Below the pieces are notes generated by a model, which saw only the letters and a list, made by a program, of their open reading frames with translations, did no database searches and was not told where the DNA came from. From the IMG/VR virus record IMGVR_UViG_2061766007_002383: DNA of 27,445 nucleotides. One strand, 5' to 3'. Positions 2,243 through 27,445 of the stretch are shown here, piece after piece. The DNA comes from an uncultured virus (IMG/VR IMGVR_UViG_2061766007_002383) (taxonomy: Duplodnaviria > Heunggongvirae > Uroviricota > Caudoviricetes). The translations under genes were made by a program, and so were the position numbers. How positions within the stretch are numbered: position 1 is the stretch's first letter; every line of letters begins with the position of its first letter.

Positions 2243-2533
2243 TTACCCCAGTTCTAATGTAATTCCATTCTGTTCGTAATATAATCTATATACATCTGCT
2301 CCAAGTACAGTAATACTATAAAGTCTGCCTTTTCGCATATCTTCATTGTGACAGACAATAAGGTTTTTATCTTTTAATTCTTTTAATACTTTAGAGATAT
2401 GATTTACTCTAATTCCTGTAATCGCCGATAATTCTGTCGGTGTTGCAAACTTTTTAATGTTCAGAATTTCCAGTATTTTTGTTCTATAACTGGAGCGTTT
2501 TACATATGCGTATAAATGTATTAAATCATTCAT
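2243..2533 (-). CDS. Winged helix-turn-helix transcriptional regulator (ArsR/MarR-like, methanogen type)
   Basis: SSYRTKIL...TPTELS..TGIRVNHISKVLKELKDKNLIVC.NED.RKGRLY..T..G matches methanogen wHTH regulators. Confidence 0.85.
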   Translation of the reverse strand: MNDLIHLYAYVKRSSYRTKILEILNIKKFATPTELSAITGIRVNHISKVLKELKDKNLIVCHNEDMRKGRLYSITVLGADVYRLYYEQNGITLELG

Positions 2534-3695: not shown

Positions 3696-3887
3696 TTATT
3701 CAAGTAAATCAAAATGAATATTATTTAATAATTCTAATCTATCTTTGTATATTTGTTTTAATTTTTCTTTTTCAAAATCACTCAATTTTACTGTTAAATA
3801 ACCTTCTTTATCTACCAGTTCAATAGATTTTTTTTCTAATTCCATATATCTTTGTAATGTTTTTTCAATAAAATCTGCACTTACCAT
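3696..3887 (-). CDS. Hypothetical protein
   Basis: Start moved to MVSADF (GGAGG SD). Confidence 0.7.
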   Translation of the reverse strand: MVSADFIEKTLQRYMELEKKSIELVDKEGYLTVKLSDFEKEKLKQIYKDRLELLNNIHFDLLE

Positions 3888-13784: not shown

Positions 13785-14408
13785 TTAATAATTAAAATGG
13801 TAATAAGTTGGATAAATTATTTGTATAATTGTTTCCAATTCTTCTGTCACTTCTAAATCCCACCAACAGAATCTTGATAATTCTTTTTCTAACCATTCAA
13901 AAAATTCTTTTTGATTGTAAGATTTAATTGTTGGTGTTTTTTTATAATATTCTGTTTTAACAATAAAATATTCATCTTTTTTAATATCCCAATAAAATTT
14001 GTCAATGTAGTCATATTCTATCATATCATCATATAGTTCTGTTTCATCGTGCATAAAGAATAATGGTTGTGTAAAAACTTCAGTACCATCCCCATAACAC
14101 CCAAACCAGTCAGATAATCTATACATTAATGTATTAATTTCTATTGTTTTGAATTCTTTAATTAATTGTTTGGCTACAAAATTATCGTTACTAATGTCGC
14201 ATTCTTGTTTTTCTTTTTCTATTTCATTCATTTTGTCATCATATGATGACCAAGCACAAGCCATTGCATGAGTATATGCATCTTCTTCGTTATATCCAAT
14301 ATCAGTCATTGCATCATATTCTCTTTCGTATGTTGATGCTTTCTCTTCTGCATCGTTATACTCTTCTTCTAACATTTCATAATTTTCTACCATTTCTACA
14401 ATATTCAT
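13785..14408 (-). CDS. Highly acidic hypothetical protein
   Basis: ORF track; AGGAG SD. Confidence 0.8.
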   Translation of the reverse strand: MNIVEMVENYEMLEEEYNDAEEKASTYEREYDAMTDIGYNEEDAYTHAMACAWSSYDDKMNEIEKEKQECDISNDNFVAKQLIKEFKTIEINTLMYRLSDWFGCYGDGTEVFTQPLFFMHDETELYDDMIEYDYIDKFYWDIKKDEYFIVKTEYYKKTPTIKSYNQKEFFEWLEKELSRFCWWDLEVTEELETIIQIIYPTYYHFNY

Positions 14409-14420
14409 TATATTACTCTC

Positions 14421-14888
14421 CTAATAATCGTATCCCATATCTTCGATTTTAATCTCATCATCATCTTCATCATCGTTTTTACGATGAGTTGTAAAAGTAT
14501 GACCAATATCGTTGAATTTTTTGTTTATGTTTTCAAGGATGTATTCGGTGTTTCCTTTTTTCATAATTTTTTGAATATCATCTCTTGTGATTGTGATGTT
14601 TCTTTTACTGTCGGTTAAGCCAAGAAAATCAGTTCTTGGTTCTTTACATCTTACATATTTCCAGTAAGCACTTCCACAAGAAGTTTCTAGTAAAAAATTG
14701 TGTAAGACAATAAGTTCTGTAGCATAAGTGTAATATGCATCAAAAGTTTCACAAGTTTTATCTTCTTTATTATGGTTCATAAAACAGATGATTTTTAATT
14801 GCCCATTTTCAATGATTGGGATAGGTAAAATCCATCTTTGTCTGCTATTTTCGTATCTATTGAATAAGTTTTCTATTGTTAGTTCCAT
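14421..14888 (-). CDS. Hypothetical protein with acidic tail
   Basis: ORF track; GGAGATGAT SD. Confidence 0.8.
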   Translation of the reverse strand: MELTIENLFNRYENSRQRWILPIPIIENGQLKIICFMNHNKEDKTCETFDAYYTYATELIVLHNFLLETSCGSAYWKYVRCKEPRTDFLGLTDSKRNITITRDDIQKIMKKGNTEYILENINKKFNDIGHTFTTHRKNDDEDDDEIKIEDMGYDY

Positions 14889-16103: not shown

Positions 16104-16121
16104 TTTATCACATCCTTAATG

Positions 16122-16149
16122 AAGTAAGCGATTTATTTATCGCTTACTT
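16122..16149. promoter_or_regulatory. Perfect 11-bp intergenic hairpin
   Basis: AAGTAAGCGAT-TTATTT-ATCGCTTACTT between a stop codon and the next SD. Confidence 0.6.
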
Positions 16150-17912
16150 TATAATGCATATTGACCAGTTGTTCCATACATATGGCAGTAATTATATCCC
16201 CATTCGTTACCAAAATAAGGGTCATCATCAATACCATAAATATCGTGCATTTTTTCGCTTACAATATCATCAATATATTGTTCTGTGAATTTAATAATAA
16301 TGTCTTCTTGAATTCTGCTTGGGTCACCAACAAGGTGTGGGAATGCTATATCGTGAAGATAAGCAGATTTACAAGAGTGTTCTCTGTTTTCGTGGAAATA
16401 TATTTCATTTTTTACTGAATCAATATGGCAGTAAATATATCTTTCATTTTCTTCGTAATCGCCGAACCAATCAATATATCCAACAAGAATATCATTTTCA
16501 TATTCTCTGTTGTTTTGTAATAATCTACCAAGTAGATAATAGCATTTTTCAGATATACTACTTGCTTTAAGTAGATATTCATTAAAGTCTTTTGGCATCT
16601 TCATTTTATATTGACATTCTTTGTGCAATTCTTCTGCGAATTTAATGATATCATAGTTGTCTGTTTGTAGATATTTATTGGCTAATTCAATCGTTAAAGG
16701 ATTGTTGCATTTTGCAATATTGTTTCTTTCGTTTCCAATAATATGGTCAGAGAGAAGTCTTGCTATATATGTGGCAGAGCCAAAACCCATTCCACATTCA
16801 TCTTCACTTGTATCAGACATATAAGCGACAATCATTCTTTTATAATCAATATCATTAATTGTTTTGCCAGTTAGTTTTTCAAAATCTTCGGCTATATCAT
16901 CAAGATATTTCCAAACATCAACATAATATTTGTCTTCTAGGTTGTCGCATTCTTTACCAAATTTAATTAATTGTTTTTGGAATTCTTTAACTGTTTCATC
17001 ATCTGCAACATAATCAAAGACTGGTGTTTTGATATATAATGCAAATAAATAAGCATTAAATAAATCTGTTGAAATGGTTGCTTGATTATCATTTTGGTCT
17101 TCTACTCTCATTAAGCCACCATCCCAGTATACTGAAATATCTTTAGGTTCGGCTTTATCTAATTCATTAAATGCTTTAATAAAAGGTTTCATTTTATCAC
17201 TCCTTTGTTTTGTTGTTTTATTTCTTTTTATGATTTGCCCATCTTCGTAGATATACTCTTCATCTTCCATATTGTTGTAATTCTCATCGTAATATAGTTC
17301 TGCATCTATTCTGTTTAGTTGATATTCATTTGCTAAATCATCTACAAATCGATTATATCTTCGTTTTGACTCCATTGTCGGTTCAAAATATTTTTTTCTA
17401 TAAATAAACCATCCAATGATGTCACTATGAATTTTAAGTTTGTTTTGTACTTTATGTAATCCACTATATCCACATAAGTCTGTTACCATCTGTAATAATG
17501 CGAACATTTCACCAAAACAATCGTACATTCTTTCATTGCTCCCAAAAAATCCACATTCATCATCATTATTTTCGTTACAATATTTACAACTTTTATTTTC
17601 ACAAGGTTGCCATTCTTTCCAAGTATGTACTGGTTTATCGGCTTCGTGAAAACGGGCATCTATTCCCAAAAATACATTTGATGAACGAATAATAGGTTCT
17701 TTTTCCCATCCATCATATGCATCTAGAATTTTAAATTTATCTTCGTTTGGGTTATCTTTGCTATATGCATTGAAGAGATAGTTTCCTTCATCAAACCATT
17801 CAAAATACCAACCCCAATCATATTTTTCGGCTTCTTTTTCTTGTGTTTGTTCATCTAAATTGCACCAGTCATTTACTTCTTTTAAAAACATTACATCTTC
17901 GGTAAAAAACAC
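16149..17912 (-). CDS. 587-aa acidic hypothetical protein, apparent two-gene fusion with internal start at 17192
   Basis: ORF track; internal AGGAGTGATAAAATG in frame. Confidence 0.8.
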   Translation of the reverse strand: MFFTEDVMFLKEVNDWCNLDEQTQEKEAEKYDWGWYFEWFDEGNYLFNAYSKDNPNEDKFKILDAYDGWEKEPIIRSSNVFLGIDARFHEADKPVHTWKEWQPCENKSCKYCNENNDDECGFFGSNERMYDCFGEMFALLQMVTDLCGYSGLHKVQNKLKIHSDIIGWFIYRKKYFEPTMESKRRYNRFVDDLANEYQLNRIDAELYYDENYNNMEDEEYIYEDGQIIKRNKTTKQRSDKMKPFIKAFNELDKAEPKDISVYWDGGLMRVEDQNDNQATISTDLFNAYLFALYIKTPVFDYVADDETVKEFQKQLIKFGKECDNLEDKYYVDVWKYLDDIAEDFEKLTGKTINDIDYKRMIVAYMSDTSEDECGMGFGSATYIARLLSDHIIGNERNNIAKCNNPLTIELANKYLQTDNYDIIKFAEELHKECQYKMKMPKDFNEYLLKASSISEKCYYLLGRLLQNNREYENDILVGYIDWFGDYEENERYIYCHIDSVKNEIYFHENREHSCKSAYLHDIAFPHLVGDPSRIQEDIIIKFTEQYIDDIVSEKMHDIYGIDDDPYFGNEWGYNYCHMYGTTGQYAL

Positions 17913-19826: not shown

Positions 19827-20267
19827 TTATCCCCAATCTTCAATCGCAATGATGATTTTATCACCATCATTGTAGATTGTAAATTGGCTCACAGACCAAT
19901 ATGAGCCACTTAATGCATCTTCTTTAGTAAAGAAATAAAATGCATCAACAACTTCATAATTGTCGATGACTGCATCTTTTAATTGGTCTTTGTCACCATA
20001 TTCGTTCAAGAAATTATCTAATTCTTGTTTGAATTCGATGAATGTGCCAATATTTAATTCTGCATCTTCATCTGTATCGTTTATTCTGAAAACGATACAA
20101 CCATCATCTTCAAAGTACCAGTAACTTTCTCTCATATCAATAACTGGTGTATTGAAGTTTGAATCTCTCCAGTTTACTTGAAATGCTACTGGAAGATGTT
20201 TTGTTTGTTCATCGCATACACTATTTATTCTTTTACTAAATTCATCTAGAATTGCTCTAATTTTCAT
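19827..20267 (-). CDS. Acidic hypothetical protein
   Basis: ORF track; GGAGATGAT SD. Confidence 0.8.
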   Translation of the reverse strand: MKIRAILDEFSKRINSVCDEQTKHLPVAFQVNWRDSNFNTPVIDMRESYWYFEDDGCIVFRINDTDEDAELNIGTFIEFKQELDNFLNEYGDKDQLKDAVIDNYEVVDAFYFFTKEDALSGSYWSVSQFTIYNDGDKIIIAIEDWG

Positions 20268-21920: not shown

Positions 21921-21949
21921 ATTATCACCTTTTAATTTATTTTAGGAAA

Positions 21950-22008
21950 TTGTAGGCAAGGAATCAAACCTTGCTATCTTTTTTAAGATATTTGACAATC
22001 AGTTACAA
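21950..22008 (-). ncRNA. tRNA-like mini-cloverleaf with T-arm; not a canonical tRNA
   Basis: TTGTA-AC-TGAttgTCA-AA-TATCTTaaaaAAGATA-GCAAGGtttgattCCTTGC-C-TACAA. Confidence 0.5.
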
Positions 22009-22011
22009 AAA

Positions 22012-22263
22012 TTATTCATTTGTGTATTGTTTAATGATTTTGCCATCAGAAAATCTTGTTACATTATATTCTGCATCTTCATATTCTGTATGAAGATGAA
22101 CAAATGATAGAACGATTGCTAATTCAATACAATCTTCTTCTGACATTGTTAATTGACAATCAGAGATGTTTTTAACTAATTTTCCATCATAGGTTACTGC
22201 ATTTGTTTGTATAAATACATCACCAAATTCAGTTCTGCTTATGTTAACACTTGTATTTAACAT
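22012..22263 (-). CDS. Hypothetical protein
   Basis: Start moved to MLNTS (GGAGTGAT SD). Confidence 0.7.
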   Translation of the reverse strand: MLNTSVNISRTEFGDVFIQTNAVTYDGKLVKNISDCQLTMSEEDCIELAIVLSFVHLHTEYEDAEYNVTRFSDGKIIKQYTNE

Positions 22264-22298
22264 TTTTATCACTCCCTTGTAATTTTAATGGTGGATAT

Positions 22299-22640
22299 TT
22301 ACATTTCCACCATTTTTGTTATGATTTTGCTAACTATAGACAAGTTAGTTTCGATAATAGTTGCTATATCGGAGCATTCATCATCTTCGACTTTAATTCC
22401 GATTTCATCATCGGCTTTAATATATACCAAGCCTTTGTAGTAAAAATTGGTAATTGAATCGTATTGTTCGTATTTTAAATCGACAATTGAGCAATTAATG
22501 TCGCAGTTAAAGTATTCAGAATCAGATTCCATTGCTCCTAATATCCAACTTCTTGCATCATCGACATCTTCAAGTTCTAATGCTAACATTTCATCTACTT
22601 CTTTATCTCCACCCATTTCTATAATATAGCATCTTTTCAT
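22299..22640 (-). CDS. Acidic hypothetical protein
   Basis: ORF track; GGAGATG SD; ATGA overlap. Confidence 0.75.
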   Translation of the reverse strand: MKRCYIIEMGGDKEVDEMLALELEDVDDARSWILGAMESDSEYFNCDINCSIVDLKYEQYDSITNFYYKGLVYIKADDEIGIKVEDDECSDIATIIETNLSIVSKIITKMVEM

Positions 22641-22894
22641 TTTAACATCTCCTTTAAGACACCACCATCTTTACTGTATAATGTTTGTACATTGCCATCC
22701 ATTCTTCCATCTGAATCGTATTCAATCATCTCTACTGGTTCGTAAAGAGTTTTATGGTCAATTGTTCCAATTACCATTCCATTCCAGTCGCTTAATTCGA
22801 TTCTTTCATCATCGATGTCAATCATATAGACATCGCAAAAACTACATCCATTTCCAGTCACAAATGCTCCATTGTTTAATTTCATTAATACCAT
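22637..22894 (-). CDS. Hypothetical beta-rich protein
   Basis: ORF track; GGAGATGAT SD. Confidence 0.75.
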   Translation of the reverse strand: MVLMKLNNGAFVTGNGCSFCDVYMIDIDDERIELSDWNGMVIGTIDHKTLYEPVEMIEYDSDGRMDGNVQTLYSKDGGVLKEMLK

Positions 22895-22905
22895 TTTATC
22901 ATCTC

Positions 22906-23442
22906 CTATTCTTTTATTAATCTTTCTATGATTCTTTCTTTCATTTCTACGATATCATCAAGGATAAAATCATCCAAGTCGCATTCAGAAGATGGGTCTT
23001 CTTCTTCACAAAATTCTTGGATAGTTTGATATCTTTCGATTTCACATAGTGTACCAATTAATTCAATTTTTGGTGTTTGATTGATAATTTCGCTTGTAAT
23101 ATATTCTACAAGTTCTATTTTCATATCAAAAGCGACTGCATCGGCTTTTCCATAATTGTCGCTATTAACATTATTATGTTCAAAATCTTCTTCTGTGAAT
23201 GTTTCATTTTCATACCATTCATCATATTTAGTATCGGTGTATTCGGATTCTTTATATTCAAAAGAGAATCCTTTATATTTATTTGCTACTCCTTTAACAA
23301 GGAGTAATTCTGCTAATGCAATAGTGTCACATTCTGATGGGTTACCATCGCAGTTTTCCCATTCATTGCTTAATTCTCTGATTTTTGTATTGAGTTTTTC
23401 AATATCTGCTTTTGCATCTTCAATATCAATAATATCTTTCAT
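22906..23442 (-). CDS. Highly acidic hypothetical protein
   Basis: ORF track; GGAGATGG SD. Confidence 0.8.
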   Translation of the reverse strand: MKDIIDIEDAKADIEKLNTKIRELSNEWENCDGNPSECDTIALAELLLVKGVANKYKGFSFEYKESEYTDTKYDEWYENETFTEEDFEHNNVNSDNYGKADAVAFDMKIELVEYITSEIINQTPKIELIGTLCEIERYQTIQEFCEEEDPSSECDLDDFILDDIVEMKERIIERLIKE

Positions 23443-23454
23443 TTAACCATCTCC

Positions 23455-23583
23455 TTATTTGTTGTTTTTAATTATGTATTTTTTAAATTGATTACAAGCC
23501 TTATTTAAGGCATCAGTATTAGTTTTTTTGCTATCGCAATGACCACAGTAGTAGTCATTGCAAAAGCCACAGATTTTTTTCAT
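23455..23583 (-). CDS. 42-aa Cys-rich miniprotein (MKKICGFCNDYYCGHCD...ACNQFK)
   Basis: Manual translation; AGGTGAT SD; fills the gap. Confidence 0.7.
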   Translation of the reverse strand: MKKICGFCNDYYCGHCDSKKTNTDALNKACNQFKKYIIKNNK

Positions 23584-23592
23584 TGTTATCAC

Positions 23593-23997
23593 CTAATATT
23601 TACATTCATAAATTTTTGCATCATAAGTTGGAATGAAGTTTAGTAAATTATATCTTCTGTTACCATACACTTCTTTCCACCATTGTTGATTCTCACAGTA
23701 ATCGATGATTACATTAGCGAATTCTTCTGCAGATGCAGTAATTGTAAGAATAGTTCTTTTAGAATAGTTATAATTGATTGGGTCACCAAAATCTCCTTGT
23801 TCAACACTATATCTTCTTGAACACTTATTAAAGATGATTTGACCATCTTTCCAAGAGATTTCAAACCAGTTGCCATTATTTTCAGATTCTGCAAATTCTT
23901 CATCGAACCTTAATATGAATCTGAATATATCCCTAATAGATGCAGAAATTTTATCTGCATCTATAGGTTCGTAGTACTCTTGCATTTCTTCTAACAT
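23593..23997 (-). CDS. Hypothetical protein
   Basis: ORF track; AGGTGAT SD. Confidence 0.8.
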   Translation of the reverse strand: MLEEMQEYYEPIDADKISASIRDIFRFILRFDEEFAESENNGNWFEISWKDGQIIFNKCSRRYSVEQGDFGDPINYNYSKRTILTITASAEEFANVIIDYCENQQWWKEVYGNRRYNLLNFIPTYDAKIYECKY

Positions 23998-24005
23998 TGT
24001 ATCAC

Positions 24006-24383
24006 CTAGATTTTTTCTAATGCTTTATTTAAGCCTTTTAATTCAATATTAAGATTTTCATAAAAGGCTTCTCTTTGTTTGTTGTCTTTTATGACTCTGT
24101 CGATGAGTTTATTGATATCTAAAAAGATATCATTGAATAATTCGACTCTGTTGTGGTTGTAAATTTCACATCGTGAGTAACTATCGTAAGCATCATCCAT
24201 TAGTGTTCTTTGAGTGAATCTGCTTATACCATTAACTTCAACATAGATTGGTATGTTTTCGTTTTCAAATTCGTGAGTGTGTCTGAATCCGATGTGAATT
24301 CTATAGTGTTCTTCAGTCATATTTTCAATTTTATCGATAGCATCATCGATTTCTGTGATTACTTCTTCTTGGTATTTGTACAT
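24006..24383 (-). CDS. Hypothetical protein
   Basis: ORF track; AGGTGA SD. Confidence 0.8.
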   Translation of the reverse strand: MYKYQEEVITEIDDAIDKIENMTEEHYRIHIGFRHTHEFENENIPIYVEVNGISRFTQRTLMDDAYDSYSRCEIYNHNRVELFNDIFLDINKLIDRVIKDNKQREAFYENLNIELKGLNKALEKI

Positions 24384-24407
24384 TTTTTCACCTTATAATT
24401 TGTTTAT

Positions 24408-24475
24408 TAATCGCTTCTGCGATTATATAATCCCATAATTGCTTATGAGATTATATAATGGCAGAAATGCCATTA
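24408..24475 (-). repeat. 68-nt triple-hairpin intergenic element, copy 1
   Basis: Minus strand TAATGGCA-tttc-TGCCATTA | TATAATCTCATAA-gcaa-TTATGGGATTATA | TAATCGC-agaa-GCGATTA. Confidence 0.85.
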
Positions 24476-24715
24476 TTTTATCTTCTTGATGGTCAGATTC
24501 TTTTTATCGATTTGATATTCAGAATCTGTTTCATCAACAAGCATACTTGCTTGTGTTATTAAATCAAAGACTTTTTCTGCCTTTGATTGTGAAATTTCAC
24601 CATTTGTGACTGTCAACACTTCTGTATAGTGTTTGTTATCATCAGATTCAAATACTGTTCTGTGGTCAACCACAAATCCAAACTTTTCAAGAATGTTTCT
24701 CACTATAAATATCAT
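24473..24715 (-). CDS. Hypothetical protein
   Basis: ORF track; AGGTGAT SD. Confidence 0.75.
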   Translation of the reverse strand: MIFIVRNILEKFGFVVDHRTVFESDDNKHYTEVLTVTNGEISQSKAEKVFDLITQASMLVDETDSEYQIDKKNLTIKKIK

Positions 24716-24723
24716 AATATCAC

Positions 24724-25008
24724 CTACTCATATGTAATTTTGAAATTCTTTTTGTTGTAATTGATTGATGTGAAAGCAATGTATATTTCTTTTACATCAA
24801 ATACATCGATACTTATACTATCGTTAATCCACATTGTATCACCATTAAAATGTATTTTACGGACATCTCTGATGTGCATATCATTAATAATGACTACATC
24901 GCAAATTATATAGAATTTCTCATTATTTTCAATATATGTGTCTTCAAAAGCAAGGTTGTATGCTTTAATTTTTTCTATTATCTCTTTCTTACCTTTTACT
25001 TTCTCCAT
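24724..25008 (-). CDS. Hypothetical protein
   Basis: ORF track; GGTGAT SD. Confidence 0.75.
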   Translation of the reverse strand: MEKVKGKKEIIEKIKAYNLAFEDTYIENNEKFYIICDVVIINDMHIRDVRKIHFNGDTMWINDSISIDVFDVKEIYIAFTSINYNKKNFKITYE

Positions 25009-25012
25009 AATA

Positions 25013-25474
25013 TCACCATTCTTTATCGATATAGACTACTTGAGATGGATACCTTTCAACATCTTTGTAATGCTCAAGATATGATTTTCTGTCGGTATAA
25101 ACACAATCAAGCCATCCAATGTTGATGAACTTGATTTGTCTGTTAAATCTGTGGTAGTCTTCTTCTTCAATCTCTTCTTGATATGAATACATCAAGAAGT
25201 GGTCTTCCATTGCTTTTTGGAAGTAGTATTCTGCCATATGGAAGATTTCGGCTCTGAAATCTTCTTCTTTTAATTCTTCATAATAATCACAAAAATATCC
25301 AAGATACTCTAAAATTTCGTGTAAATACCTTTGTGGGTATTTTTTGGCTATTTGATACAATTTATAAGCCATTTTATCGTCTTGATTGATTTCTCTACCC
25401 CATTGGTCGGTAGAGAACTCATAATTATGTAGAATTTTTAAATCTTTTTGTACATATTTTGGTAGTTCTGTCAT
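25013..25474 (-). CDS. Hypothetical protein
   Basis: ORF track; AGGTGAT SD. Confidence 0.8.
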   Translation of the reverse strand: MTELPKYVQKDLKILHNYEFSTDQWGREINQDDKMAYKLYQIAKKYPQRYLHEILEYLGYFCDYYEELKEEDFRAEIFHMAEYYFQKAMEDHFLMYSYQEEIEEEDYHRFNRQIKFINIGWLDCVYTDRKSYLEHYKDVERYPSQVVYIDKEW

Positions 25475-25482
25475 AATATCAC

Positions 25483-25566
25483 CTATTCTTTGTGTAATGT
25501 CTTTATTTGTTCAAATCTTCTTATTTCATTCCAACATCTGATTAAGTCACATATCCATAATGGCAT
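25483..25566 (-). CDS. 27-aa peptide (MPLWICDLIRCWNEIRRFEQIKTLHKE)
   Basis: Manual translation; GGGGG SD; TAATG overlap. Confidence 0.55.
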   Translation of the reverse strand: MPLWICDLIRCWNEIRRFEQIKTLHKE

Positions 25567-25706
25567 TAGATTAACCCCCTAGCCATCATTTCTTTATGTA
25601 ATTTTGGTATTTCTTGTTTTAGGAAATATCCCCCTTTATCTTGAGCAATAAAGTAACGATTGAGTAAATCATCATCGTTTAATCTTTTATATTGAAGAGA
25701 TTTCAT
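25566..25706 (-). CDS. 46-aa peptide (MKSLQYKRLNDDDLLNRYF...MARGLI)
   Basis: Manual translation; GGGGG SD; TAATG overlaps. Confidence 0.65.
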   Translation of the reverse strand: MKSLQYKRLNDDDLLNRYFIAQDKGGYFLKQEIPKLHKEMMARGLI

Positions 25707-25834
25707 TAGAAATCCCCCAATAGTTCAATCTCTAAATCAACGATATCATTGATATCTAGTGATTCTAGAAAACTGTTCGCTTCTTCTTCGTTACCATTTC
25801 TTGCTAATCTTTTAATTAGTGCTTTTTTACTCAT
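25706..25834 (-). CDS. 42-aa peptide (MSKKALIKRLARNGNEEEA...LLGDF)
   Basis: Manual translation; GGGGGT SD. Confidence 0.65.
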   Translation of the reverse strand: MSKKALIKRLARNGNEEEANSFLESLDINDIVDLEIELLGDF

Positions 25835-25844
25835 TGTTTACCCC

Positions 25845-26159
25845 CTATTGTGTTAAAAATTCGTATGTTTCTTTATCGCCACCACTTGCGATGTATTCAT
25901 CGCAGTTAATGGCATTTTCTCTCACTAAATCGTTTCGGAATGCACTTAAATTGGCATCTCTGTTTTTGAGAATTTCCCAATGCCCAGTTGTAAGAGCAAC
26001 AAGGCAATAACCGATAGTACTGGTGGAAATAAGCCCCCCACGATTTCCGATGGTAAAACCAACAACTGTAGTATTTTCTTCATTGATGTGTTCAACATCT
26101 AATGCTTCAAATGAGATGTAAACCCCATTTTTCATTGTTTCATATAATATCTCTTTCAT
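25845..26159 (-). CDS. Hypothetical protein
   Basis: Start moved to MKEILYE (GGTGAT SD). Confidence 0.75.
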   Translation of the reverse strand: MKEILYETMKNGVYISFEALDVEHINEENTTVVGFTIGNRGGLISTSTIGYCLVALTTGHWEILKNRDANLSAFRNDLVRENAINCDEYIASGGDKETYEFLTQ

Positions 26160-26182
26160 ATTATCACCATAAATTGAGCAAC

Positions 26183-26851
26183 CTAGTAACAAGGTTGCTC
26201 TGCCCAAAACAAGCCATCTTCTTCGTTGGCTTCGTGATGGAAACTCCATTGTAAACAGTCTTCTATATTCTTGAATGATGCTCTTACTCTGCCACCATTG
26301 TAGTGACTGCAGTAGATTTCTTCAAATTTATGTCTTTCTTTGCCTTCTGCATAGTATTTGGTAGATTCTTCATCACCATTATACCCTACAAGTTGATTAG
26401 CAGTTCTACAAGCATCTATGAATCTACGATTATTGCTATCGTAGTAACTCCAGTCTACACACCAAAATGGAAGTTTTAAGACTTCTTTTGTGATTTCAAA
26501 AGCCCCATCAACGAAATTAGCAATAAAGAATGATTCTAATTCGTTTTTTGTATATTCAAAGTCATTTTTGATAATAGTCTTTGAATCTACAAATTCTGAT
26601 GTAGGTATAGTGAATTTAATGTCATATACATTGCTTGTATCTGCATATTTACTGTAATCTAAAGTTGTAGCATCACTATATATACCAGTCAAGCAACGCA
26701 TTTCATCCACACATTTCTCCAAATTAGTATCTTCTTTTGCTAATTCGTTTTCTAGTCTATTGCAGATTATTCTGAAGTTAGATAGGTCGCAACAAAGGTA
26801 ACCATTGTTAACTTCTTTATTATGTTTATAAATATCTTCCATAGTTCTCAT
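26183..26851 (-). CDS. Hypothetical protein
   Basis: ORF track; AGGTGAT SD directly after the triple hairpin. Confidence 0.8.
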   Translation of the reverse strand: MRTMEDIYKHNKEVNNGYLCCDLSNFRIICNRLENELAKEDTNLEKCVDEMRCLTGIYSDATTLDYSKYADTSNVYDIKFTIPTSEFVDSKTIIKNDFEYTKNELESFFIANFVDGAFEITKEVLKLPFWCVDWSYYDSNNRRFIDACRTANQLVGYNGDEESTKYYAEGKERHKFEEIYCSHYNGGRVRASFKNIEDCLQWSFHHEANEEDGLFWAEQPCY

Positions 26852-26862
26852 TTTATCACCTT

Positions 26863-26930
26863 TAATCGCTTCTGCGATTATATAAGCACCTATTGAGTAA
26901 CAGATGCTTATATAATGGCAGATGCCATTA
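26863..26930 (-). repeat. 68-nt triple-hairpin intergenic element, copy 2
   Basis: Minus strand TAATGGC-atct-GCCATTA | TATAAGCATCTGTT-actc-AATAGGTGCTTATA | TAATCGC-agaa-GCGATTA. Confidence 0.85.
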
Positions 26931-27356
26931 TAAATCGTGTGCTATGCAGTACATTGTTTCTGCATAGGACTCTTCTTGTCTTTCTAGGGATTTTGATAAG
27001 TCTTCATTGATTGGCAAATGGTCTATAAAGACTTCATTGATGAAGATTTTGACATTATCTAATCCTAAATCGTGGATTATGTTGCCTTTACTCAACATAT
27101 AGAGTAAAGTTTCTTCGTTTATGTAATATGTGGTTTTTATGTAATTAGAGTCATATTCCTTGAGAACAACTTTACCATTCTCAATTGTATAGTATTGGTT
27201 TTGTTCTAGGCTCACACAAACTGTGAATTCGCCTTTAAACAAACTAATAACAATATCTTTAATTATAGGCTTATGTTCCCAGTCATTATCTAATAAAGCA
27301 CCCCAAGTGCTTTTTACATATCTTAAAAACTGTTGGTATTCTTCTTTTCCATTCAT
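26928..27356 (-). CDS. Hypothetical protein
   Basis: ORF track; AGGTGAC SD. Confidence 0.8.
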   Translation of the reverse strand: MNGKEEYQQFLRYVKSTWGALLDNDWEHKPIIKDIVISLFKGEFTVCVSLEQNQYYTIENGKVVLKEYDSNYIKTTYYINEETLLYMLSKGNIIHDLGLDNVKIFINEVFIDHLPINEDLSKSLERQEESYAETMYCIAHDL

Positions 27357-27379
27357 ATTGTCACCTTAAAATTTAATTG

Positions 27380-27444
27380 AGCCATATTGGTAGCATTTGA
27401 ATCCTTTTGTTTTTAAAAAGGATTTGATTGCTTTATTATTGGCT
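27380..27444. other. Long interrupted inverted repeat upstream of an SD
   Basis: Nested pairs AGCCA/TGGCT, AGCA/TGCT, AATCCTTTT/AAAAGGATT. Confidence 0.55.
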
Positions 27445-27445
27445 A

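Follow-up and report, generated by a model that had tools for sequence, protein, structure and literature searches.

The window, by which we mean the whole stretch of 27,445 nucleotides of an uncultured gut virus that was analysed, carries every one of its genes on the minus strand, which is the gene-sense strand throughout. Two copies of a 68-nt element lie among these genes, at the positions and with the lengths that an earlier reading made from the letters alone (the sequence-only reading) had given. As that reading had claimed, bases 1–3 of each copy on the minus strand are the TAA stop codon of the upstream gene (ORF 24473–24715 for copy 1, ORF 26928–27356 for copy 2), and the element ends shortly before the next Shine-Dalgarno (SD) sequence, 15 nt (copy 1) or 2 nt (copy 2) ahead of the GGTG of the downstream gene. 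The features at the two sites are:

24408..24475, minus strand: element copy 1, 68 nt (R1 model, 94.6 bits)
24456..24475, minus strand: copy 1 hairpin A, 8-bp stem and 4-nt loop, beginning with the TAA stop of ORF 24473–24715
24451..24458, no strand: copy 1 TTATATAA box 1, palindromic, spanning the last bases of A and the first of B
24426..24455, minus strand: copy 1 hairpin B, 13 bp closed by a GCAA loop, with a single G.U pair (minus strand)
24423..24430, no strand: copy 1 TTATATAA box 2, candidate TATA box for gene 24006–24383, whose ATG lies at 39 nt
24408..24425, minus strand: copy 1 hairpin C, the same as in copy 2, with a 7-bp stem and an AGAA loop
24389..24392, minus strand: SD core GGTG of gene 24006–24383
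24006..24383, minus strand: gene downstream of copy 1, 125 aa, no family
24473..24715, minus strand: gene upstream of copy 1, 80 aa, no family
26863..26930, minus strand: element copy 2, 68 nt (R1 model, 61.8 bits)
26913..26930, minus strand: copy 2 hairpin A, the stem of copy 1 with a shorter loop, beginning with the TAA stop of ORF 26928–27356
26881..26912, minus strand: copy 2 hairpin B, 14 bp, ACUC loop, two G.U pairs (minus strand), unrelated in sequence to B of copy 1
26908..26915, no strand: copy 2 TTATATAA box 1
26878..26885, no strand: copy 2 TTATATAA box 2, with the ATG only 26 nt away
26863..26880, minus strand: copy 2 hairpin C
26855..26860, minus strand: SD GGTGAT of gene 26183–26851
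26183..26851, minus strand: gene downstream of copy 2, 222 aa, no family
26928..27356, minus strand: gene upstream of copy 2, 142 aa, no family

At least seven ORFs separate the two copies, and the element stands in front of only 2 of the approximately 65 window genes. None of the 61 window proteins reaches a Pfam cut-off, and there is no integrase or transposase among them. A 23-nt word made of hairpin C plus the junction occurs exactly twice in the window and had no match in 100 shuffles.

The architecture proposed in the sequence-only reading holds in detail. Each copy consists of three abutting hairpins, of 20+30+18 nt in copy 1 and 18+32+18 nt in copy 2, whose outer members are conserved (the A stem is common to both copies and C is identical) while the middle stem is rewritten yet paired (13 bp versus 14 bp); each non-canonical pair reads G.U in the minus strand but A-C in the plus strand, and the loop of B in copy 1 is indeed GCAA. 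Both helix junctions read TTATATAA, and the four junctions account for four of the five occurrences of this word in the window. The minus-strand RNA is predicted to fold with −31.1 (copy 1) and −34.8 kcal/mol (copy 2), with z-scores of −7.2 and −8.1, and none of 200 shuffles was as stable. A property absent from that reading is that each element is also a near-palindrome over all of its 68 nt (inverted repeats I2 and I13). There are two almost isoenergetic RNA folds: the predicted minimum-energy structure is one long hairpin, or rod, and the three-hairpin fold is weaker by just 0.3–4.2 kcal/mol.

Six additional copies were found, which brings the total to eight in four genomes or contigs:

1089–1156, on a 2.6-kb metagenome contig (L069)
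14360–14428, copy 1 of a 146,781-bp contig (C64)
17818–17872, copy 2 of C64
20184–20238, copy 3 of C64
113400–113469, diverged copy 1 of a complete 121-kb virus (G002)
115546–115614, diverged copy 2 of G002

We refer to the two window copies, that of L069 and the three of C64 as the six close copies, and to the two of G002 as diverged. Instead of hairpin A, the second and third copies of C64 have a hairpin followed by a T-run before box 1. All copies sit between unrelated ORFan genes; among 14 flanking proteins, the sole related pair are the two tandem paralogues that flank C64 copy 1. The viruses themselves share some genes, since 11 of the 69 window ORFs have homologues in C64 and 3 in G002. 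A G002 homologue of gene 24006–24383 (59% identical) lacks the element in front of it, and the 16 nt upstream of it that resembled half an element proved to be a common SD-preceding word, found before the SD of 22 genes with up to two mismatches, or about 34 with a looser pattern, within a 20-kb stretch; in the window, this word is not present beyond chance.

A blastn search with window positions 22000–27445 gave no match in the phage collection, and in viral contigs the exact 23-mer was found at no locus, the pattern of box plus hairpin C at 15 loci with no member among them, and a relaxed two-box pattern at 68 loci, namely 66 unrelated AT-rich hairpins and the two G002 copies (L005, L022). 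A half-element pattern searched in one genome for each of 185,579 species gave 47 loci, of which only one (L108) carries the element, and therefore it has not spread through host genomes in the manner of MITE or REP sequences. The R1 model matched neither the PhiF1 nor the HGTV-1 record. Among the terminase relatives G003–G007 it gave one weak match (22.4 bits, E 0.018) that, read by eye, is not a member; in the complete or near-complete G003–G005 there was no match among the 150 scored of about 300 candidates per genome, and a generic TATA-gap-TATA pattern was not commoner in the G003–G007 records than its reversed control. The sequence-only reading had not recognised the motif as a known family, and at the gathering score Rfam had no match in the window or in L069, and the only sub-threshold match was mir-216 (24.4 bits versus 53.5 required, E 0.13). 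As for the block between the window copies, its genes had no tblastn match in relatives, where only two genes outside the block were matched, and its only blastn match was one of 69 nt at the junction of two ORFs of 42 and 46 codons. None of the contigs from four DNA runs, which are fragmentary pieces with several parts uncovered in X3–X5, joins copy 1 to copy 2. One joint in X3 (26509 to 26863) ends exactly at the edge of copy 2; its short side, of 29 letters, is too short to interpret.

Are the hairpins maintained as structures? Across copies, 141 of 142 stem cells are paired, compared with 86% in shuffles, none of 500 of which reached that value, and both sides have changed in 7 of 18 pairs; these counts come from eight copies that are not independent, with four lineages of B and an almost constant A and C. 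The middle stem, B, has been rewritten across the four lineages, its arms pairing in cis at 64 of 65 positions versus a mean of 4.0 of 8 between lineages, and the loop of C varies from 4 to 8 nt. Because pairing exceeds that of shuffles and pairs have changed on both sides, the hairpins are under selection. Their imperfections point to one strand: on the gene-sense strand there are 16 G.U and 1 A.C wobble pairs among 167 cells, B is stabler in sense than in antisense in all eight copies, and four of the six close copies have a GNRA-type loop on the sense strand (GCAA three times, GAGA once). The claim that structure is selected on the transcribed strand thus describes a real, repeated, covarying and sense-biased signal. 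The invariant part of the element is the boxes, 15 of 16 of which, in eight copies, read TTATATAA.

How these boxes are interpreted depends on the host. In the phage collection, the C64 terminase has Methanobacterium virus PhiF1 as its best match (33% identity, E 4e-67), the portal-like protein matches PhiF1 only (33%, E 2e-62), and the capsid matches PhiF1 best (E 5e-30), together with other Methanobacteriales and Methanobrevibacter viruses; the terminase is also distantly related to that of HGTV-1 (21% identity, E 2e-12). C64 is filed under a 'Clostridia bacterium' genome bin, and it encodes a tyrosine integrase, located about 53 kb from the copies amid structural and adhesin-like genes, and an archaeo-eukaryotic primase-like protein. 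Because the relatives indicated by terminase, portal-like protein and capsid are tailed viruses of Methanobacteriales, the element-bearing viruses probably infect these methanogens, and we take TTATATAA as a putative archaeal TATA box. A sigma-70 reading of the TATAAT within it was discarded, since the host is probably archaeal and reading the sequences of the copies found no −35-like hexamer 16–18 nt upstream of the TATAAT of box 2.

Archaeal promoters have an 8-bp, A/T-rich TATA box with the motif TTWTAW, centred about 27 nt upstream of the start site and with an A-rich BRE just upstream of the box; a further A/T-rich element lies near −10, and some 6 nt separate the SD from the start site (PMC5316973). 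TTATATAA agrees with that TATA motif (PMC5316973). The distance from box 2 to the ATG is 39–42 nt in five of the six close copies, copy 2 of the window being the exception, and the GG of the SD comes 29–32 nt after box 2, that is, 5–8 nt past a start site set 24 nt after the box. In copy 1 this would place transcription initiation near 24398–24401. In copy 2 the predicted start falls at the end of the SD, because box 2 is just 26 nt from the ATG, and in copy 2 of G002 it likewise falls inside or after the SD. An A-rich BRE is absent before box 2, where the bases are those of the 3′ arm of B, G-rich in four copies and mixed in the others. Elsewhere in C64, an independent intergenic TTATATAA lies 47 nt ahead of the integrase gene, and the word is not enriched genome-wide (30 sites versus about 39 expected); the C64 tRNA cluster was uninformative as an internal promoter reference because its tRNAs come straight after a gene. 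With boxes this invariant and a box 2 spacing that fits most close copies, the hairpin-embedded TATA promoter is the better of the two alternatives that the sequence-only reading had offered beside its own.

Taken together, we propose, with a probability of roughly one half, that the element is a portable intergenic cassette of terminator or hairpin plus promoter, carried by tailed viruses of Methanobacteriales. It would punctuate an extended run of small leftward ORFan genes that are probably early. At the DNA level, the invariant palindromic boxes would serve as TATA boxes: from box 2, transcription would start about 24 nt downstream, just beyond hairpin C, giving the next gene a short SD-bearing leader, and box 1 might provide a second start or one that faces outward. 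If box 2 fires, B and C are missing from its own transcript, so the sense bias needs read-through RNA, and hence the model has two parts. In RNA that reads through from the upstream gene, the sense strand would fold as A, B and C or as the single rod, and these hairpins may serve the upstream message as a cap or insulator and keep the cistrons apart; the hairpin plus T-run of C64 copies 2 and 3 would act as a terminator in the place of A. Finally, as a repeat that is conserved between unrelated genes, the cassette could offer homology for gene swapping, as has been proposed for the PeSLs, and recombination between copies may follow.

Cassettes of this kind are already known. In T4-type phages, the promoter-early stem-loops (PeSLs; Arbiol et al. 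2010, PMC2839356; Comeau et al. 2014, PMC4122927) are composite stem-loops placed right upstream of a promoter, in a unit whose last parts are the SD and start codon of the following gene, and they recur in ORFan regions between unrelated genes of related genomes, beside genes that have been replaced among relatives. The same layout is found here, with hairpin A (or the terminator-like hairpin of C64 copies 2 and 3), boxes, SD and ATG in order, and so is the setting, with no window protein at the Pfam cut-off and related flanks only beside C64 copy 1. The differences are that PeSL promoters are of the sigma-70 type (−35/−10 with 17-nt spacing) whereas the boxes here are archaeal TATA-like, that a PeSL is one stem-loop whereas our element is three abutting hairpins or a 68-nt dyad, and that mini-circle formation was shown experimentally for PeSLs (PMC4122927) whereas the present element is known from assembled contigs.

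Closer in host are the intergenic repeats of the archaeal tailed virus HF2, a halovirus (class I, 58 bp; class II, 29 bp), which also carry AT-rich promoter motifs, are conserved in sequence and position among relatives, and were active in a reporter in nine of nine cases tested, some of them bidirectionally (Russ, Pfeiffer and Dyall-Smith 2021, PMC8707807). They are conserved blocks without a covarying hairpin, one variant having a 9-bp inverted repeat.

A like layout is seen in the halovirus HGTV-1, whose conserved intergenic motifs were reportedly described by Sencilo et al. in 2013. This virus too is a large archaeal tailed virus, with repeats between small same-strand ORFans near one genome end. 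In its record (NC_021328.1), we find a T-run followed by a TATA-like word, then an inverted repeat and, last, a second TATA-like word that is complementary; the two words form the foot of the hairpin, this TATA-hairpin-TATA arrangement precedes at least 12 ORFs, and sense folds better than antisense in 12 of 12 instances. The published account of HGTV-1 likewise speaks of a region resembling a TATA box, together with an inverted repeat, before most ORFs of one arm (PMC3950731), and the same two parts are joined before ORFs here. The likeness is not one of sequence, since the R1 model had no match at E≤1 in NC_021328.1, nor of extent, since in HGTV-1 almost all ORFs of the arm have the motif ahead of them (at least 20 intergenic gaps of at least 90 nt) whereas the 27-kb window has 2 copies and the 147-kb C64 has 3. 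Moreover, the HGTV-1 inverted repeat is nearly constant whereas B is rewritten among copies, hairpins A and C have no counterpart there, and its transcripts are apparently leaderless whereas our copies precede SD leaders. With HGTV-1, HF2 and the PeSLs as precedents for TATA-plus-inverted-repeat cassettes, the idea of a new kind of cis-acting RNA or ssDNA motif is not supported: the kind of element is already known, and it is no new RNA class.

Could the hairpins act in RNA alone? On such an account, which we regard as possible though rather unlikely, the hairpins or the rod are a processing or stability module of a polycistronic sense transcript, in which B is the substrate of an endonuclease, host or viral, A caps the upstream 3′ end, C caps the downstream 5′ end and TTATATAA is an RNA recognition or cleavage motif. 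The 16:1 wobble bias, the greater stability of the sense strand in every copy, the GNRA-type loops, the covariation of all three stems with loops of varying length, and the placement exactly between stop codon and SD speak for it. However, the A-U pairs of a helix can be swapped freely and the 8-mers are unchanged in 15 of 16 cases, a constant distance from box 2 to SD and ATG is unneeded for a role in RNA, and two copies come right after a terminator-like hairpin and T-run, where read-through RNA would be scarce; also, we know of no dsRNA-specific nuclease in Methanobacteriales.

An unlikely reading would combine two media in one sequence, a promoter pair in DNA and, in read-through RNA, a bistable module of rod and three hairpins. 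A host or viral nuclease cutting at B would leave the upstream message capped at its 3′ end by A and the downstream one capped at its 5′ end by C. Between the early genes of phage T7 there are RNase III sites, of which the element, so read, would be the archaeal counterpart.

The palindromes may instead matter as double-stranded DNA, either as operators of a dimeric viral regulator or as a symmetric bidirectional promoter with inward BRE-like arms, hairpin potential being a by-product of dyad symmetry. The entire element is a dyad, and A and C lie in the interval from TATA box to start site, the usual place of action of archaeal repressors. A small winged-helix protein, below Pfam cut-offs, is encoded at 2243–2533, and the HF2 repeats promote in both directions, with regulator sites expected within them by the authors (PMC8707807). 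We consider this improbable, because B of the two window copies is wholly different but paired, a misfit for a sequence-specific operator, because the half-sites of C are spaced by 4 to 8 nt, and because a dyad or cruciform predicts unbiased mismatches rather than the bias observed.

Still less probable is an element folded from the sense strand as single-stranded DNA, whether an attC-like recombination site, as the sequence-only reading had suggested, a mobile element of miniature size, or a signal for priming or for replication. Integron attC sites lie between same-strand genes and are imperfect palindromes that fold strand-specifically, their outer parts being conserved while the centre varies but keeps its structure, and our element shares these traits as well as its position between unrelated genes; G.T wobbles are tolerable in ssDNA, the three-hairpin fold is the minimum in two of four copies with DNA parameters, and C64 encodes the integrase and primase-like protein mentioned above. 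However, attC needs unpaired stem bases, which the nearly fully paired stems here lack, and the conserved words are TATA-like. An integron has its integron-type integrase and one site per cassette; here the window encodes no such enzyme, that of C64 is far from the copies, and at least seven genes rather than single cassettes are bracketed. There are only 2–3 copies per genome, and target-site duplication is ambiguous (the ends are TAAT/ATTA and the flanks A/T-rich). Nothing specific favours the attC-like site. As for a bacterial-type intrinsic terminator of a Clostridia phage, suggested by a minimum-energy rod of about 30 bp right behind the stop codon and by the bin of C64, it is highly improbable, since there is no U-run after the rod or hairpin A in either window copy, L069 or C64 copy 1, hairpin A is missing from two copies, and the relatives' structural genes indicate Methanobacteriales viruses. 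Local hairpins are also favoured by a compensatory change that C shows in C64 copy 1 and by the self-complementary cores of A and C, of which there are five different ones, because those positions mismatch in the rod.

Gene expression in the viruses of gut and rumen methanogens is almost unstudied, and the cassette reading makes a concrete prediction for it, a transcription start about 24 nt after box 2, near window positions 24398–24401. With its 68 nt, the cassette is also a small candidate part that could serve as promoter and insulator in Methanobrevibacter genetics. The arrangement of TATA word, covarying hairpin and TATA word before ORFans would be extended from haloarchaeal viruses and T4-type phages to viruses of Methanobacteriales, in support of the view that large tailed viruses use portable cassettes of promoter and hairpin as a general means of expressing and exchanging their accessory genes. 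For cassettes of this type, so strong a strand bias among wobble pairs is unusual, and it raises the question whether such hairpins do their work as RNA and not as DNA.

The two 68-nt copies described by the sequence-only reading were found as claimed, and a 23-nt word made of hairpin C and its junction occurs twice in the window with 0 mismatches and has zero matches in shuffled sequences. On the minus strand, each copy opens on the upstream ORF's TAA stop and ends just 5′ of the next SD. The helix junctions do read TTATATAA, the four of them representing 4 of the 5 TTATATAA words of the window.

Features of the window and of two related viruses
24408-24475, minus strand: first window copy (hairpins A, B and C abutting; TTATATAA box 1 at the A/B junction, box 2 at the B/C junction)
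26863-26930, minus strand: second window copy, same layout
2243-2533, minus strand: 96-aa protein, weak winged-helix/MarR-like match (Pfam E 1e-4, below cut-off; PHROG E 1.6e-5)
Locus L121 3000-3100 (contig C64 about 23000-23100) and related virus G003 3712-3795: TATATAAATGT repeats

Scanning metagenomes for the two junctions together with the outer stems yielded one further copy (L069:1089-1156, on a 2.6-kb contig), which begins with an ORF's TAA stop and ends before an SD, as the window copies do. A half-element pattern, run on one genome per species (185,579 species), gave 47 loci, and the element was present only in L108, on the 146,781-bp contig C64, binned as 'Clostridia bacterium' from deer cecum. 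On C64, the covariance model R1, which also recovers the window copies and that of L069, identified three copies (14360-14428, 17818-17872 and about 20184-20238). The second and third of these lack hairpin A and have a hairpin with a following T-run in that position. Two diverged copies lie at 113.4 and 115.5 kb (E 1.7e-5 and 7.5e-5) of G002, a virus whose complete genome (121,120 bp) bears terminal repeats. The element is a real, structured and conserved cassette. We give a probability of roughly 0.5 to its being a composite of hairpins and promoter, a reading whose functional steps we infer.

Which organism carries these copies? Among the products of C64 are a terminase, a baseplate protein, very large Ig-like and DUF11 proteins, a tyrosine integrase, NrdD, an ERCC4 nuclease, and DnaE-like polymerase and PriL-like proteins. 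Three structural proteins were compared with a phage collection: the terminase has Methanobacterium virus PhiF1 as top match (33% identity, E 4e-67; second best E 3e-16), the portal-like protein matches PhiF1 alone, and the capsid protein matches PhiF1 and Methanobacteriales or Methanobrevibacter viruses. Homologues of window ORFs are found on C64 between 3 and 14 kb (11 of 69) and in G002 (3 of 69), in shuffled order, and the SD sequences are GGTGAT or GGAG. On the basis of the relatives' structural matches, the shared ORFs and the SDs, we regard the window as a piece of a large tailed virus whose host is a Methanobacteriales methanogen; the bacterial label of C64 is probably a binning artefact. 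The window itself (29% G+C, seven masked N runs) carries about 65 tightly packed ORFs, on the minus strand only; of 61 tested, none reached the Pfam cut-off and three matched a PHROG family. In the two related viruses, repeated TATATAAATGT words occupy the divergent region between a leftward ORFan block and rightward structural genes, and these regions are probably the main divergent promoters. The approximately 2.4 kb between C64 copies 1 and 2 (L120 15000-17400) lacks long ORFs and notable repeats and matches nothing in Rfam, and its G+C content rises to 47%, against 29% for the genome.

Folded as minus-strand RNA, the window copies reach -31.1 and -34.8 kcal/mol (z -7.2 and -8.1), and the plus strand folds less stably (-26.3 and -26.9 kcal/mol). 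The sequence-only reading had missed that each element forms, in addition, a single long dyad, with one rod as its minimum-energy fold. Because the three-hairpin RNA fold lies only 0.3-4.2 kcal/mol above the rod, the element would be bistable on paper. In an alignment of eight copies, from box 1 through the end of C, standard pairs fill 141 of 142 cells; shuffled controls pair at 86.1% on average and reached the observed value in 0 of 500 cases, and slid controls pair at 27–47%. Both sides have changed in 7 of 18 pairs. The middle stem is indeed rewritten and still paired: inner B arms, which form four unrelated sequence lineages, match in cis at all but one of 65 positions (64 of 65), and arms taken from different lineages pair at a mean of 4.0 of 8 (maximum 6, n=42). 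Four B lineages give this set little formal power for a covariation test. The G+C cores of A and C exist in five self-complementary versions, with a C-G to U-A exchange in hairpin C of C64 copy 1, and the hairpin C loop is 4-8 nt long. Since the varying core positions are mismatched in the rod, this covariation supports local hairpins.

The wobble pairs had been assigned to the gene-sense strand, and this holds across 167 pair cells, with 16 G.U, one A.C, 150 Watson-Crick pairs and no other mismatch. By our own count, these correspond to 11–12 independent G.U events and one A.C event. From base composition, both kinds would be about equally expected (sense-strand G times U about 0.05, A times C about 0.045). 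The sense strand of B is more stable than the antisense in all eight copies, by 1.5-9.1 kcal/mol. A double-stranded dyad or cruciform predicts no such bias, and the stems are therefore under selection as a single strand, of which the sense RNA is the simplest candidate.

The boxes are what stays constant. TTATATAA is kept in 15 of 16 boxes, though the helix would allow free A-U swaps, and it fits the Thermococcus TATA motif TTWTAW; in the study reporting this motif, the start site lies about 27 nt downstream of the TATA centre, with an A/T-rich element near -10 and about 6 nt between start site and SD (PMC5316973). Box 2 lies 39–42 nt from the ATG, and the SD GG 29–32 nt past box 2, in the first window copy, L069 and the three C64 copies; in the second window copy, box 2 is just 26 nt from the ATG. 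Another intergenic TTATATAA of C64 lies 47 nt upstream of the integrase gene. Some features speak against a simple promoter: the sequence preceding box 2 is not A-rich, TTATATAA is no commoner across the genome than expected (30 sites in C64, about 39 expected), and an RNA starting past C would omit B and C. A processing or stability module acting purely as RNA would accord with the strand bias, and leaves the constancy of the boxes to be accounted for; we consider it unlikely, though the best of the alternatives. Less probable again is a double-stranded regulator site: the dyad could serve it, and the window has a single candidate DNA-binding regulator, the 96-aa protein, but such a site predicts no wobble strand bias, at odds with the G.U excess. 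A single-stranded DNA site for recombination or priming seems improbable, although with DNA parameters the three-hairpin fold has the lowest energy in 2 of 4 copies. A bacterial-type terminator is very hard to credit.

Composite hairpin-plus-promoter cassettes have known counterparts. The promoter-early stem-loops (PeSLs) of T4-type phages are repeated stem-loop, promoter and SD units among ORFans (PMC4122927; PMC2839356), implicated in gene shuffling (PMC4122927). One arm of halovirus HGTV-1 holds at least 12 instances in which two complementary TATA-like words flank an inverted repeat, the sense strand folding better in 12 of 12. For halovirus HF2, 9 of 9 tested intergenic repeats proved to be active promoters, some of them bidirectional (PMC8707807). 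The present element shares this design but not the sequence, and is less frequent per genome; it has two extra hairpins at its flanks and a middle stem that is freely rewritten, and its strand bias is unusually clear.

On the minus strand of the window, unrelated 9-10-bp hairpins without TTATATAA directly follow stop codons in the intergenic gaps at 16104-16148, 21921-22011 and 27357-27445. Also on this strand, at 25557-25568 and within a 91-nt gap, the 9-nt word of hairpin A's 3′ arm comes after the stop codon (TAA) of ORF 25566-25706; this could be the remnant of a cassette or a coincidental 9-mer. In run X3, one contig links a 26481-26509-like sequence to the exact edge of the second copy (26863), its short side of 29 letters being too short to interpret. 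Three contigs (window 25689-25756, L120 13794-13858 and L069 61-92) share, at 80–88% DNA identity, the junction between an ORF of 42 codons and one of 46 codons; in the window and C64, an element lies 0.5-1.1 kb upstream of this junction.

In G002, the homologue of the gene after the first window copy (59% identical) has no element in front. A 16-nt word before it was rejected as a half element because it precedes the SD of at least 22 G002 genes. On the minus strand of L130 (G002 101121-121120), a 16-nt word with the pattern WWAAACGGWWARRTGR stands immediately 5′ of the SD at most genes, with 22 matches at up to 2 mismatches for 0.04 expected and about 34 when the pattern is loosened. A T-run often comes before the word, which also provides hairpin C of both G002 copies with its 3′ arm. 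It may be a promoter-proximal, processing or translational signal.

The element appears with different genes. The 14 proteins flanking the copies are mutually unrelated, save one tandem-paralogue pair around C64 copy 1. The B stem of the first window copy is near-identical to that of C64 copy 1, where the neighbouring genes differ, and unrelated to that of the second window copy. At L120 13894-14938, C64 copy 1 sits exactly between the tandem paralogues (36% identity over 136 aa, E 4e-26), an order of paralogue, element and paralogue that unequal exchange between cassettes would produce.
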